A stretch of DNA of 64,000 bases, taken from Podarcis gaigeae. Its lineage: Eukaryota. The stretch lies in assembly GCA_964106915.2 (NCBI GenBank), contig OZ066914.1. One strand, 5' to 3'. The notes under the pieces were generated by a model. That model was not told the origin of the DNA. It saw only the letters and a program-made list of their open reading frames with translations, and searched no databases. How positions within the stretch are numbered: the stretch's first letter is position 1; every line of letters begins with the position of its first letter. Position numbers and translations under genes: made by a program. This document shows, piece by piece, positions 10,745 to 31,547 of the stretch.

Positions 10745-11800
10745 ATCTCTCTCTCTCTCATTTTTATTAAATTTTCATCTAATGACTTCCCTTCTTCTCT
10801 TTCCATGATTCATTTTGCCTATCTTACATCCCTGCATATTTTACAATAACCATTCCAATCGGTTTTCCACTATTACGTCCATCAATATTATGTTGCCAGT
10901 GTTTTGAGCTGTACACAGTTATTTTCCATATACTCAATAAACATTTTCAAATCTTCTTTTAATGTATGTTCTTCTTGCTCTCTTATTCTATATGCCAAAT
11001 CTGTCTGCAAGCTGTGCATATTCTGTCAACTTAAGTTGCCAATCCCCTTTAGATGGGACCTCGCTCACTTTCCATTTTGGAGCTAACACAACATGGGCTG
11101 CAGTTGTTGCATACATAAATAACCTTTTCTGATACCTGAGGATTTCAGTCTGGGTTATCCCCAGCAGAAAGGACTTTTTTTTTGGGGGGGGGGGGAAAGT
11201 AATTTTAAACATTTTTTTCAGTTCATTATAAATATTTCCCCAAAATTCTTTTACCTTTTTACATGTCCACCACATGTGAAAGAATGTTCCCTTCACCTCT
11301 TTACACTTCCAGTACCAATCTTGTAAATCTTGGCCAGCCTAGGTAAAGGTAAAGGGAGCCCTGACCATTAGGTCCAGTCGTGACCAACTCTGGGGTTGTG
11401 GCGCTCATCTCGTTTTATTGGCCGAGGGAGCCGGTGTACAGCTTCCGGTTCATGTGGCCAGCATGACTAAGCCGCTTCTGATGAACCAGAGCAGCACGGA
11501 AATGCCATTTACCTTCCTGCCGGAGCGGTACCTATTTATCTACATGCACTTTGACGTGCTTTCGAACTGCTAGGTTGGCAGGAGCTGGGACCGAGCAATG
11601 GGAGCTCACCCCGTCGCGGGGATGCAAACCTCCGACCTTCTGATCAGCAAGTCCTAGGCTCTGTCTTTTAACCCACTGTGCCACCTGCGTCCCATCTTGG
11701 CCAGCCTACTTGGAGTTAAATGCCATCTATGAATCATTTTCAAATAGTTCTCTTTCAAAGAATAACATGCTATAAATTTCAAGTCACTTTTCCAAAGTTT
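10745..11800 (-). mobile_element. 5'-truncated L1 LINE (ORF2 C-terminus and 3' end), interrupted by a SINE
   Basis: Minus strand gives KLWKSDLKF...[11 protein letters not shown] and GTFFHMWWTCKKVKEFW (L1 Cys-rich domain); TSD CTTGTGCATC at 10735-10744 and 11801-11810. Confidence 0.88.
11342..11693 (-). mobile_element. Sauria SINE nested in the L1
   Basis: GGGACGC head on the minus strand, AGGTAA tail; perfect 15-bp TSD ATCTTGGCCAGCCTA (11327-11341, 11694-11708). Confidence 0.93.
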
Positions 11801-11969: not shown

Positions 11970-12828
11970 GTAAGTAACACTTGGAAGTCATTTTTTGGGT
12001 TTCGGAGGTGGGATAGGACATTATCTGGTGGCCCCAGGCTACCACAGGATCCTTATCAATAGTATTAATTCTCAAGCATATGTGATTAGAAGCCTGCATT
12101 AACACAAATGTTTGACCTGGGGAGTATCCAGCATACTGTATACTCAGTGGACATTCATGTTTCTTTTTGAGGAGCTTCAGCTTCAGGAAAGACTTCTGAT
12201 CCCCAAAGGCGGGGGTGTTAGAACCTCAGGTCTGGGGGCCAACTGCAACCCACAGCCCTGGCTCCTCTGTCTGGCCCTCTCAATTCTCCGCAGACACACA
12301 CCTTCCTGGCTCTGTTCGGACCCTGAGCATTTCTTCCTGGCTGTGATGTGTCTGATAAAGCCTCTTGCTTGACAGGGTTGAGGATGGAGGGGAAAGTGTG
12401 AGTGTGTGTAGAAGGTAGTCTACTTTGCAAATGTAACGTTTCCATGTGTGGCCCCGCATGCCGCTGCCACGTGGTCCTTGGAAGGTAGGCCAGAAAAAGG
12501 ATGTGGCTCCCAAGTTGTAGAAGTTTCCCTAGCTGCAAGGTCAAAAACAGCCATCCGTTTTGAGATTTGCATCCAGCGCCGGAACTGCTTGCAGGTTAGG
12601 ATTGAGGATCCTCCATGGGCTTCAATTCCTGAGAGGCTTTCAGGTGTCCTCTTCAACTTGGATGACCCTAATGAAACACTCAGTTTGTTACCAAATTGGG
12701 GGGATGTCAGCTCTGTGCCAGGTTCTGCCTGCTGCGTCCCTGGTGTTGCAGTGGTACTGAGAGAAGCTGTCACATCTTCTTTTGTAGTGCAGGCGGGTGA
12801 AATAACAAGCTTTCTGTTCTCCCAACAG

Positions 12829-13009
12829 GCAACCCGCCTTTCAGTGAGGCCCCAAACTTTGCCGATCAAACTGGGGTGTTTGAGTACTTTGTAAACGTTT
12901 CTGATCCTGGGGAGCATGTCTTCACCCTCCGACAGGTGGTGACACAGAGGCCTATAACCTGGGTTACTGAATCAGAGCATCCCATCAGCATTATTGGCAA
13001 CTATAAATG
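12829..13009 (+). CDS. GALC: GALC coding exon (exon 14 equivalent)
   Basis: acag|GC AAC...AAA TG|gtatgt; 181 nt; [59 protein letters not shown]. Confidence 0.97.
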
Positions 13010-13650
13010 GTATGTAATTAAACGCAGTGCAACCCGCTGAATTTCCAGCTTGGTGCAAAGTTGCAGTGGAATCCAGTAATTGCACTGATTTTGTTAGCTG
13101 CGGTATGCAGATTTGAACATCAGTGAATGCAAAAGGGCATCCCTCACCCATGAATTGCAAAATGTCTTTCTTTGCTGGGTTTTTGTGGTTGCATAAACCA
13201 GGTGCTGCATGGCGACGTACAGTATTTAATGTGATTCAAGGCTGCCACCTGCTGTTCTCCTAGCATAACTACGTGAAAAGAATCTGATGGAAATCAAGGT
13301 GTTGCAGAAAGTGATTGTATGAGCATGCATGGTTGAACGTAAAAAGAAAACAGCCTTAGATTGTGTGTTTGGAAATCGGAGTGTTACAGGATTGTGAATG
13401 AACTATGGTTCTGAGTATTACTTAGTACTCATTTTATCTCTTAAGTACTGGAGCTCTGTGCTTATAAACGTGCTGCAGTCCCTGCAGTTTAGTTTTTCTT
13501 ATCAATTTGGTTTTTTGCTCTATAATAAAGATGCTGGGTTGTATTCAGTGACGTCACTGCACGATTGGAACAACTACCGCTCACACAACAGAACTTCTCT
13601 TTCCTCCCCATTTGCCCCTCACCGTAATAATAATGTAATTGGATACAACA

Positions 13651-13787
13651 GGTCTTTTTCAGGGGGTAATCAGAGGTATGCAGTACTGGCACCCCCCCTT
13701 GGTAAAAAGTGTGGCACTTATTGTAACAGCTTCGTGGTGAGTACCAGCACCTATTTTTCCACGGGGGGAAAAGCACTGGCTACAACT
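13651..13787. mobile_element. Short non-autonomous DNA transposon (CAGTGCTTTT-type ends); related pieces at 27892-28025 and ~18930-18960
   Basis: ...GAGTACCAGCACCT...AAAAGCACTG end resembles, in reverse complement, CAGTGATTTTTTT...AGGTGCCAGAACTC at 27892. Confidence 0.55.
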
Positions 13788-14389
13788 CCATTTGAGGGTG
13801 GCTTACATATAAAAACAAAAAGCAGTTGGCTAGGTGCCTCTATTCCTTTCCTATCTTCTTCCTCCACTCCCTGGGATTCTGTTATTTGCCCTGCACAGTC
13901 GTTTTGCTGCTCCTGCTCCCATGGAGTTATGCCAGGCTAGCAAAGAAACACAGTGGTGCATATCACTTCTGGCAGGGATGGCACAGCTGGGATAGCAGAG
14001 GAATGGACAGTTGTACTGGGTGCCTCCTTGGGTGTGGTTGCTGTTCACCTTAAGCAGTTGCATCTATGCAGCTCTTGGAAAATGATGTGTGTGTGTGGAG
14101 GGGGGGGGGGAATAGTCAACCTCTGTTGTGCCAGAGTACTGATCCAGATTCCACCTCTCCCGCCAGCTGCAGTGTATAAATACAAAACAAGTTCAGGAAC
14201 AACTGTATTATAATTATTACAATATGTTTATTTATTGATACTCTGCCTTTTTCCCTGACACAGATTTGTGCATACATGTCCTTAAATATGTTTACACTTA
14301 GAAGTGGTTGGAATTTTTCTTGTTGTTGGAAGACTAATGCCAAAACTGACACTTTTCCAGCGCTGAGAACTGCATTTGTCTTTTTGCAG

Positions 14390-27310: not shown

Positions 27311-30055
27311 CCTGCCAAACAGGGTGCCCATTTTATAGCTAATTTAAAATGTAACATAGACACAAATACAAATAGTATTTAACTGCTTAGATTCCAAGTC
27401 TTAAATCATTTTGCTTCCATGATATGTGGAAAAAATGAACAGGCTCCATTCTCTGAATTTGGGACCTATTCAATGGTTGGTAGGCATGTGTAGGGGAGTG
27501 GATGTGGAAAATGAAGGTTCATGACACTTCTATTTTTTATTTTTTTTTATCTGAGAGATGAAGGAGACAATTCCATGAGCCTTTAAACACAGAACCTCTC
27601 AGGTAGAAAGGTATGTGTTCATTTGAGGACAGCCCAACACATTTTGCTGCCTGAGATGAAGCAGCAAATTGCTCTCTCCACCCATCACAGTGCATAATCC
27701 CCAAGGCCGATCAGGATATTTGGGCACCCGAGGCAGAAAAGGATGTAGTTCAGTTATGGGGCATCCTCTTTGCAAGCAGATAATCCTAGTTCAATCTCTG
27801 GCAATTCCAGGTTGGGCAGGGAAATCTGGAATTCTGTAGTGCTGTTGCACAATGCTGAGCTGGGCAGACCATTGGTCTGAATCAGTATAAGCAGTGATTT
27901 TTTTTCTTGAAAAAGAGGTGCCAGAACTCACCATGAACACCTCCCTTGTTCTCTTATAATGACAATGGCGCCCACCTGAGAGGTGTCAGAACTGAGTTCC
28001 AGCAAGTTCCGGCTGAAAAAAAGTTCTTCTAAAATTCCACAGGCAACTCCTCCCTTCTCTGGTATTAAAAACACAGCAATAATAAATTATATGACTAATC
28101 ATTTGCTACGCTTTTATGGCACCTCAAATCAGCAGCCTCTCTTGTATTTGTGTGTGGCCTTTAGTTAGAGAAAGAAAGAGAATAACACCTTCAAACTTTC
28201 TTTGGCTGACGGGGTAGGTAAATAATATCACTTATGCAACAGAAACTGTTAAGCATCTATTATGTAACTGTGTATGAGCAAAGATATCACCAAACCACAC
28301 AAACACACAGGCCTTCTTTTGACACATTGATTCACGTGGTCTGTTTTTATGGCAGTTAATGAATGCATGTCATATCACAGGTGGTTTATCATGACACCTT
28401 GCTAGGAGTCGCCCTCTTCCCTTCTGAGACACTTCTAAGCCTCAGCTATAAACAGATAAGCAGTTCACTGAGTGAGACTGACCCCTTCTTTGAAAACTGT
28501 TCCAAGGCTGCCGATGGTGCTACCTCAGTCTAAGAAAAAACAAACAAAACAAAAAATGTTCCCTTCCAAACTTATTACAGCAGGTCTGATCTGTACGTTT
28601 AAAGAAAGAAATATATAGATCTATCGCAAAGATCAGTCTGCAGAATGGAAAATAGAAGCTTGACATGAATTTTTATGATCTCCTTCTTACCGAAAACTTT
28701 TTGACAAGTCTACACAAGAGCACAACATACCTCTAGATGGCAGTGGTACTATGGCTAAGGAAGCATGTAGCATCTTTTGAGCTTTTTCTGCCTTCCTCTC
28801 AGGCATGGGAAAGCAATTTTATTGATGGCTGCTTTGAGATGTCATGTTTTTGTCAGTGGCCTTACTGCCCACCGTAGTCTAGCATTTTGGAGCTAAATGT
28901 CAGTCTGAAATGGTTGACAAGAAGGAGGAGGCCTGGTGGTAACTGTAGACCAGGATGGGGAACACTTGGTCCCCAAAATGTTGCTGAACTACATTGCCCA
29001 TCAGCCCCAGGAATGGCCACTGTAGTTCAGCCATATCTGGACAGCCAAAGCTTTTCCCCACCTGCATTATGGTCAATACATTATGGGGATCAAGAGTCTG
29101 TCAGGACTTATGCAAAACCAGTACCATAAGTACATGCTGAAGTCTCATTCATTCCTATACAGAATGCTCAACAACATTTTGTGTCTGTATTTGAACCTCT
29201 TGAAATACGGCAATGCTACTTATGTGATATAATTTCTGGAGTGAATAAAGTTTGCCTACCTTTTGGAAAAACAAGAATTTTCTTCTTAATTCAAAAAAGA
29301 AAAGAATAAAGGATTAAGATAAAGAGGGCACTCATGGACTGAAAGAAAGGTATTTCCGGTCTCTCAATGGTTATCATTTTTTTCGAATGGCTCTGGCATC
29401 AAGAAAACTAGTTGTTACCTCGTCAAGTCACCAACAGGATAAGGGTTACTAATACTGACTTAGGCAGACTACTGGACTGCATCTTGTGCTCCCTTTGCCT
29501 TCTGCGTGTATTTAGAAAGATCCAAGAAAGGTAGGAAACATACATTTATATAATTAACATCTATTATTAGGACAGAGGTAGCGAATGTGGTGCCCTAGAG
29601 ATGTTATTGGACTTTCATCAGCCTCAGCCAGCATAGCCAATAGTTAGGGGTGATGGACCAGTCAGGAAGTTGTAGCTCAACAACTTTTGGAGAGCATGTC
29701 CGTGTAAGATACTGCAGTGCAAGTGATGCTAAGGGTTTATAAATGCCAACGTTTTCCAAATAACTTGCAGGGCTGCCAGGTGATTTTCTTGTTGTTGATA
29801 AAATTGATTGAGACATTTGCATATTTCCCAAGCCTGGCATCAGAGATCAGTGTCCTTGGGTAGCTGCTAAGGCTTCAGCAGCGTGGCAAGGCCCCCCTAC
29901 GACCAGCTGTTCTTTCCTGCCATTTTGTTTTCAGCCACTTGTTCAGGACAAATGAGAGGGTGGTGGTGGAGGTAGAAGAGGAGGAACTCCATCAAAACCA
30001 TCTTGCCTTACCTTGGAGCCAATTCTCATTCTAAATCAACCTCAATAAAGGTCGC

Positions 30056-30816
30056 TGTCAGGGGTTCAGAAGGAGAGACACAGGAGGGGGAGCAAATGGA
30101 GAGTGAGGAGGAGGAGTACGAGGGGGGCGCAGGCAGTGACAGTGACCAGAGTTATTCCACAAGCCTCTCTAGCGAATCGGAGGACTCACAGAAGGGAGCG
30201 CCGGTGGCCAGAGCGAAGGGGGGTCCAGGGGGGAAGCCCCAGGAGGAAGGGGCCAGCGGGGAGTCCTTGAGCAGCAGCTGGAGATCAGGACCAGTGTCTC
30301 CACCAGAGCGCAGTGGGGAGGGGGAGTCCCAGGAGTCGGGACCAGTGTCCTCACCACCAGAGGGAGGAGAGGAGTCAGGTTTGGCAACACCCACATCAGG
30401 AAGCGGGGAAACGGTCAGAAGGAAAGTCACCGGCTGGGCGCGCGCGCCAAGTTCAAATGTACAGGAGCGCGGCACAGCGGGGAGCCCGGGAAGGGAGCCA
30501 GGTCCTAAAGCCCGCCGGAGGGAGGGGCAAGACTCAGGAGGCTCAGCGTCAGAGGAGTCCAGGAAGGAGGGAACCCCAGAGGGCAGAAGGACCCAGCGCA
30601 GGAAAGAGCAGCGCAAGAGGTGGAGCCGGGCTAGAATCTTAAACTGGTGTGGGTGGAGCAGTGAGTCAGAGGGGACTTAGCCGGTCTAGCGTCGAGACGT
30701 GGGTCTGCGCGCCCAGAGCTTGGAAATGGAAACTAAACTTTTAATAAAGACTTTTGTATATAACATCCACTGGGCGTTGGTCCTCTGTGAGCTGGGACCT
30801 AGCGGCAGTCCTGACA
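30056..30816 (+). mobile_element. Solo LTR (probably Gypsy/Ty3), young
   Basis: TGTCAGG...CCTGACA 7-bp inverted ends; perfect 5-bp TSD GTCGC (30051-30055, 30817-30821); AATAAA at 30743-30748; CpGs retained. Confidence 0.9.
30096..30680 (+). CDS. LTR-embedded ORF, 194 aa from ATG: acidic/Ser/Gly-rich disordered region followed by an Arg-rich C-terminus; function unknown
   Basis: Frame open from the start of the LTR to TAG at 30678-30680; in-frame internal duplication SGPVS(S)PPE; ends TPEGRRTQRRKEQRKRWSRARIL. Confidence 0.45.
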   Translation: MESEEEEYEGGAGSDSDQSYSTSLSSESEDSQKGAPVARAKGGPGGKPQEEGASGESLSSSWRSGPVSPPERSGEGESQESGPVSSPPEGGEESGLATPTSGSGETVRRKVTGWARAPSSNVQERGTAGSPGREPGPKARRREGQDSGGSASEESRKEGTPEGRRTQRRKEQRKRWSRARILNWCGWSSESEGT

Positions 30817-31547
30817 GTCGCTTTTTAGGTATAAAAGGAAATGTAAGATACATGATTATTTAATTTGAAAAGGCCACCATTCTCTGTTAGAATTTTTTTA
30901 AAAAATATCTTATTGCCATAACAAAAATGAGGGAAAGCCTCAAAACCTAAACAAATGTACTCTCAATTCACAGCTCCACTGGTTCCAAGCTGCCTTCAGT
31001 GGCTGAAAATGACTCTTACCGATCAGTCCATGAAAGCTGTAGTTGGTGAATCTAAATTAAGCCAATTAAGACCTCCAGTCCTAATTATTCACTCTTTGTC
31101 CAGTTCTGCTAATACAGGCAATAACCATGTCAAGCATCACCTTTGTGTGAGGCCTGTATGGTCTGCCTCAGCTCTGGATCCTTTGAGTTTTATCCAACTA
31201 AGTTATATGCAGAGTACATATACACTACATATACACTACATACACTCCAACATTCTGGGAGGGTGAATCGGGACACGACCTCCCCCCGCACCATTCTGCC
31301 ACCCACCACCCTTATAAGTTGCCATTGGCTCCCCCCCTCCCGATGGCTTCAAAGTGGGTAAACCAGTTCTCTCAGTACAACCGAGACCTGGTGATTCTCT
31401 TGATCTTCATGACCCCCTCTCCTGGGGATTAAATATAATTTCATTTCATCAACTTGTGGAGTCTGAGAATTTCTTTCAGTACTTTTGAGAAAACTGTCGG
31501 ATGGCTGGAGGAACAAATGCAGGAATTAGGCTTGCTTCTAAAACCAT

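Follow-up and report, generated by a model that had tools for sequence, protein, structure and literature searches.

The long open reading frame of a solo LTR in a lacertid lizard very probably encodes the C-terminal tail of a Gypsy Pol polyprotein. On balance, we favor a reading in which the LTR is a young insertion, its frame is the end of Pol, reached by read-through into the 3' LTR, and this end forms a tail on integrase that is likely to serve nuclear import or chromatin tethering. Insertion-site choice in vertebrate Gypsy elements is little studied, and a young multi-copy family that seems to have lost its methyl-lysine cage and gained a tail of ~370 residues would offer a defined module for such import or tethering. 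A single stretch of DNA would then double as promoter repeat and protein code, which explains the gene calls on solo LTRs in these lizards (records of the P0001–P0004 type). Should the tail turn out to be passive, only an annotation note would remain.

A young solo LTR

The LTR lies in the window, by which we mean the whole 64-kb stretch of DNA that was analyzed; its features are collected in Table 1. An earlier note made from the letters alone had described a clean LTR with the 5-bp target-site duplication (TSD) GTCGC and an AATAAA at 30743, and all of these were recovered. The LTR begins with TGTCAGG, ends with CCTGACA and is flanked on both sides by GTCGC. An empty site, without the LTR and without one TSD copy, occurs in all four public sequencing runs (two from one organism and one each from two others), with contigs in each that connect 30050 or 30053 to 30817 or 30820. 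Because these joints omit the LTR together with one TSD copy, the LTR borders are exact and independently fixed, and the empty site in 4/4 runs means that the insertion is young. It is polymorphic or private, and is thus usable as a marker for recent activity. No Pol sequence stands beside the LTR in the 64-kb window; TG...CA termini, a TSD, an empty allele and an absent internal region identify a solo LTR. Summed contig depth is 10^4–10^6 in the LTR versus about 5–190 in the flanks, an excess that marks a multi-copy family, depth not being a copy number. The sequencing runs listed as containing the element include no RNA run, which has no bearing on expression.

The T content of the LTR is 13%, and its CpG observed/expected ratio is 0.53 versus 0.29 for the whole window. 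[quoted passage not shown] Elsewhere in the window, a 116-aa frame at 10988–11338 (-), which resembles the end of a LINE ORF2, gave no match in a Pfam scan, and overlapping open frames of 160–183 aa at 12412–12971 and 13398–13940 are possibly host exons.

Table 1. Coordinates of the solo LTR, its flanks and the features of its open frame
Feature	Position	Strand	Remark
Solo LTR	30056..30816	+	761 nt; chromodomain-bearing Gypsy (Tf1/Sushi-like) family; no second copy in window
Left target-site duplication GTCGC	30051..30055	+	joint of empty site omits 766 nt, i.e. LTR and one copy
Right target-site duplication GTCGC	30817..30821	+	from sequence and empty site
Poly(A) signal AATAAA	30743..30748	+	62 nt past stop codon
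207-codon frame and stop, very probable LTR-encoded Pol end (integrase tail)	30057..30680	+	homology to Podarcis Pol C-termini
In-frame ATG, tail position 14	30096..30098	+	C at -3, G at +4; absent from some subfamilies
Acidic Ser block SESEDSQKGAP	30171..30203	+	within 14-residue run identical across four subfamilies
Two 21-nt repeat copies (SGPVS..PPE)	30285..30305 and 30336..30356	+	51 nt apart; no length difference from subfamilies A, B
Conserved motif R/K-R-K-V...RAPSSN	30417..30458	+	subfamily comparison
Conserved basic motif PGPKARRR	30498..30521	+	subfamily comparison
Arg/Lys-rich end, then W-x6-WC	30585..30650	+	likely nuclear localization and binding module

The open frame of the LTR

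The frame is open over about 82% of the LTR, as had been noted, with 207 codons at 30057–30677 and a stop at 30678–30680; the in-frame ATG at 30096 is also present and yields 194 aa. The product had been thought to end at ...RARIL, but 12 further residues follow, NWCGWSSESEGT, and these include part of W-x6-WC, the best-conserved motif. An internal duplication had been credited with keeping the frame; the repeat is indeed in frame, but since two related subfamilies, A and B, are equally long there without looking repeated, it provides no evidence for a frame-keeping insertion. How much does the length of the frame itself say? The caution in the earlier note that ORF length is weak evidence was borne out. 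A plus-strand frame of at least 207 codons arose in 22/5000 mononucleotide and 85/5000 dinucleotide shuffles of the LTR (the latter rising to 194/5000 when all six frames were counted), in 161/5000 shuffles of the ORF span alone and in 166–247 of 3000 block-wise shuffles (5.5–8.2%). Frame length alone is weak to modest evidence for coding. Neither the sense (tail) frame nor the antisense LTR frame gave a match in a Pfam scan, and hydrophobic residues make up 10% of the tail versus 37% of the integrase core. The antisense frame, 174 aa at 30152–30676 (-), is probably a shadow of composition.

Homology to the C-terminus of Gypsy Pol

A search among proteins of similar length found four relatives, 63–95% identical to the window frame and one of them named from Podarcis lilfordi; a search among longer proteins found four matches, namely one Logan fragment plus three Gypsy Pol records from Podarcis muralis. 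In the relatives' Pol P0005, Pfam recognizes protease, RT, RNase H, the integrase zinc and core domains and a Tf2-type SH3, and the best PDB match of P0005-type Pol is Ty3 Gag-Pol (E 1e-132). The PR-RT-RH-IN order of Ty3/Gypsy is thus found in the Pol of relatives; no Pol of the window's own subfamily turned up. The LTR ends had at first suggested a Gmr1-type element, a reading abandoned since integrase follows RT in P0005.

The last ~205 residues of P0005 align with the window frame from LTR codon 1 at 66% identity. Against the C-terminal ~205 aa of subfamily A and B Pol, the window frame is 62–66% identical over 205–208 columns, and against the subfamily C tail it is 52–54% identical. The LTR frame is open in four subfamilies, and also in a second copy of the window subfamily (P0001, 95%). 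The full order of Pol is PR-RT-RH-integrase-SH3-chromodomain, an acidic linker of ~160 residues, a Gly/Glu junction and the LTR-encoded tail. The junction reads GGFEGGMD and continues with VRGS, encoded by the opening four codons of the window LTR. Three records (P0039, P0058 and P0064) are out of frame at the junction and read GGWMSGVQ, where SGVQ is the start of the window LTR in another frame; these records therefore tie the LTR start to the junction. The Gly/Glu codons of the junction may be the polypurine tract read as protein. That the same three records lose frame at one G-rich spot before the LTR suggests a slippage hot spot.

The collection comprises 49 listed lacertid-type records and four short ones, the two largest clusters being represented by 15/23 and 15/24 listed members. 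Among the 49 listed, 15 span the chromodomain, the junction and the full tail to the terminal W-x6-WC, and a further four reach partly into the tail; 14 with a chromodomain stop before or at the tail, 14 have neither, and two have the tail and lack the chromodomain. A query free of the tail (residues 985–1290) brought three further clusters with 16 members, two of them full to the end and two partial. In P0029, the LTR tail follows immediately on the SH3 region, chromodomain and linker both being absent, and P0006 carries an in-frame 35-residue duplication in the linker. We read the tail-less, chromodomain-less and P0029-type records as probably decayed copies.

The continuation of the Pol frame into the 3' LTR is seen at the protein level, in predicted proteins, and gene models are able to run across frameshifts. 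In ten records, the distance between the SH3 start and the end is exactly 514 residues, and P0007 runs from the chromodomain through the tail end in 415 aa on a single Logan contig of 1,384 nt; both argue against stitched gene models. The window's own subfamily, known here from its LTR frame only, would share this Pol layout. Searches farther afield found no relative of the element in metagenome and viral contigs, three relatives in a 50%-cluster library (none beyond those already found), no usable ESM Atlas match to the tail and, for the P0005 C-terminus, ESM Atlas chromodomain clusters at 0.77–0.80, which are a lead only. The earlier note had offered a read-through C-terminal tail of Pol/integrase as one of two alternatives, and the Podarcis Pol records, which end with the LTR frame in frame with RT, RNase H and integrase, bear it out; by homology, we consider it highly probable that the LTR frame is the Pol tail.

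A chromodomain without its cage, and a long linker

A profile built from the chromodomains of 11 distant relatives matches 8/8 lacertid Pol records tried (E 1e-9 to 3e-4), Pfam Chromo itself scoring under its cut-off (E 0.009–0.026). The chromodomain model has a pLDDT of ~90 and its structure matches HP1/CBX, the folded alignment having included canonical chromodomains. The lacertid Pol records thus carry what defines chromoviruses, a chromodomain at the integrase C-terminus. They lack what defines a group I chromodomain, three aromatic cage residues, of which two or all three are absent: across 13 records, cage position 1 is N in 12, the remaining record having a different start; position 2 is K/R/E in all 13; and position 3 is F in two, T in 10 and A in one. 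The domain is therefore predicted no longer to read methyl-lysine. With 81–92% identity between subfamilies, it is conserved to the same degree as RT, and therefore it is not being discarded; the cage-less domain probably still does something. In the P0005 chromodomain (residues 1076–1128), even the second cage tryptophan, a residue retained by group II domains, is missing. Directly after this chromodomain, residues 1129–1200 form a conserved aromatic/acidic block (65–92% between subfamilies) with two short helices predicted at low confidence and with no known match.

From the SH3 start to the end, 13 distant relatives have 138–205 residues versus ~500–550 in the lacertid records; the distant relatives terminate within about 0–55 residues of the chromodomain, and in the lacertid Pol ~370 low-complexity, mostly acidic residues follow it. 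The basic end of P0005 has a net charge of +10 in 30 residues. An AlphaFold model of P0014 (22 close rows) has a mean pLDDT of 33 even in the integrase core and carries no weight on disorder. In a quick tree, which holds no named Sushi reference, a long branch leads to the lacertid clade, whose nearest non-lacertid relative among the records collected is the amphisbaenian P0044 (SH-aLRT 94), a partial record from which the presence of a tail is not readable.

Selection on the tail

Identity to P0005 across subfamilies is 86–99% in the enzymes, 81–92% in the chromodomain, 37–49% in the acidic linker where it is in frame and 56–71% in the LTR tail; the tail, in other words, evolves much faster than the enzymes. 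Between subfamilies A, B, C and the window, tails are 49–72% identical with length differences in frame, and 83/207 positions are identical in all four, clustered in short motifs. In every complete tail aligned, the end motif retains its two tryptophans and its cysteine. By a rough estimate, 6–14 nonsense changes would be expected without selection over the subfamily divergence, with a probability of 2e-3 to 1e-6 of seeing none, records first found via the tail being biased to open frames.

Variation among copies points the same way. Of 108 copy variants, 40 are listed, with subfamily and copy-private changes mixed; 18/36 of those listed in frame are synonymous versus 23–29% expected (p 0.0004–0.007; pN/pS about 0.3–0.4), and the same 36 give 6 and 11 synonymous changes in the other two frames. 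Codons with a single variant give 14/28 listed substitutions synonymous (p 0.002–0.016); four two-variant codons were set aside, one of which had the sole "stop" variant beside a second, near-fixed difference. Among listed variants, the synonymous share is 11/17 in the 3' half and 7/19 in the 5' half, a division made post hoc, and the third-position excess alone is not significant (16/36, p 0.11). None of the eight LTR indel places listed is inside the frame, all being past the stop; several of these 3' indels are at a T-run, and short contigs may hide indels as loose ends. Six low-depth (single-copy) internal deletions touch the frame, and four of them are not multiples of 3. The 14-residue conserved block has no variant among those listed, and DNA-level (promoter) constraint may act there. 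Taken together, the comparisons suggest that moderate purifying selection likely acts on a fast-evolving tail, and we hold with good confidence that protein-level selection maintains the frame in active lineages.

Proposed mechanism and alternatives

What might such a tail do? We propose that Pol translation runs on through the polypurine tract and junction and terminates at the U3 stop of the 3' LTR, giving an integrase with a chromodomain, a mostly acidic chain of ~370 residues and a basic W-x6-WC end. The tail would be disordered and flexible and would stay on integrase; its basic end would import integrase into the nucleus and tether it to chromatin, with the chain giving reach, much as in Ty1 integrase, and this end would act beside a chromodomain that would no longer recognize methyl-lysine. 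During reverse transcription, U3 is copied to both element ends. This copying would place the frame in every LTR as a passenger, and LTR-LTR recombination would leave solo copies such as the one at 30056–30816, which itself most likely makes no protein. For the import and tethering role of the tail on integrase, which is argued by analogy, we see slightly better than even prospects.

The tail could also be made within Pol and then cut off by the element protease, yielding a small accessory protein of its own, nuclear or RNA-binding, that acts, for example, against host silencing. The sheer extent of low-complexity sequence after the chromodomain, in a region so much shorter in relatives, would suit a released peptide, as would the short conserved motifs within a variable acidic chain, a pattern typical of accessory proteins. 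The cleavage site is purely hypothetical, however, and a long disordered tail can remain on integrase in Ty1 (PMC10050235); we consider release unlikely. Quite unlikely, too, is passive read-through, in which Pol lost its stop, T-poor promoter DNA happens to be stop-free, the tail is tolerated and the conserved blocks are cis-acting LTR elements. That block-wise shuffles reach the frame length so often, that the antisense frame is open too, that the most conserved block has no variant among those listed and that tail identity drops to ~50% all fit a passive tail. Yet the synonymous excess is confined to the coding frame, the frame stays open across ~50% divergence with its gaps in frame, and the tryptophans and cysteine of the end motif are kept, though Trp codons mutate easily to stops.

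The other alternative of the earlier note, an accessory protein translated from the ATG at 30096, would be an independent U3 gene expressed, in the manner of MMTV Sag or Nef, from an RNA that is spliced or starts internally. This ATG has G at +4, P0001, P0038 and P0067 have Met at the same place, and gene callers report P0001–P0003 as stand-alone products, although such calls are presumably what gene callers would return on short LTR contigs. Against it, the Met is limited to those three records, the first Met falling at tail position 25 in A, 10 or 36 in C and 140 in B; conservation, and with it homology to Pol, is present from codon 1, before any ATG, and runs on into Pol; and an ATG 40 nt into U3 would probably precede the LTR transcription start. 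The conserved start codon, separate from pol, that marks genes of the Sag or Nef type was not found here. As the family at large does not share the ATG, a separate accessory gene is very improbable. An integrase tail concerned with import and tethering thus remains our preferred reading.

Comparison with known systems

MMTV Sag and lentiviral Nef are coded in U3 of the 3' LTR as separate genes on their own RNAs; the lacertid LTR frame, in contrast, is continuous with Pol. Ty1, a Copia-type element, has an extended integrase tail that lies in mid-Pol and not in an LTR. The long disordered linker of Ty1 integrase ends in a basic NLS together with a short motif for tethering (PMC10050235), and the lacertid tail resembles it in having a long linker with a basic end, a likeness in layout.

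The order PR-RT-RH-IN-SH3-chromodomain is shared with the Tf1/Sushi elements (V-clade) of fungi and vertebrates, whose chromodomain is unlike the lacertid one, where two or all three of the cage residues are missing. In PMC3601003, the Sushi LTR motifs are given as TGTYANR / CNTNACA; the window LTR ends fit them, a fit that is weakly specific for Tf1/Sushi, as the 5' motif of rGmr1 fits TGTYANR too. The same paper places the poly(A) signal of the Sushi LTR model near the 3' end, as here, and describes the Sushi U3 as T-rich, whereas the lacertid LTR is T-poor and coding. Reptiles are known to hold full-length chromoviruses (PMC3670739), and the lacertid family may already be catalogued. In the open literature, covered mostly at the level of titles and abstracts, we found no vertebrate report of Pol running into the 3' LTR.

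In plants, this layout is already known, and the vertebrate case appears new in the literature covered. In beet Bingo1-4 and Bingo7, according to PMC3605345, the chromodomain is upstream of the PPT and the ORF extends into the LTR, as in the lacertid element; their group II chromodomain lacks cage residues 1 and 3, and, unlike these elements of a plant clade, the lacertid chromodomain has also lost the second cage residue (W). Pol extends into the 3' LTR of every CRM group A element (PMC3059260), a group in which acquisition of the CR motif is linked to loss of the chromodomain (PMC6317226). The lacertid Pol frame also reaches into the 3' LTR, at the protein level, but here the chromodomain is retained, ~200 residues upstream of the LTR, whereas the CR motif replaces it in CRM group A; the lacertid tail has no Pfam match. 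CRM elements live in plants and have LTR ends TGATG/CATCA, and the lacertid element lives in lizards and has TGTCAGG/CCTGACA. The lacertid element therefore appears to resemble CRM in layout without being a CRM member. A bolder and tentative idea, to which we give well under an even chance, is that a vertebrate chromovirus lineage recruited 82% of its LTR as code for a new module that targets integrase, convergent with the centromeric CR motif of plants, and that together with a cage-less chromodomain this module picks sites via some chromatin partner. The closest analogue of the lacertid element is the plant CRM arrangement rather than MMTV Sag or Nef.
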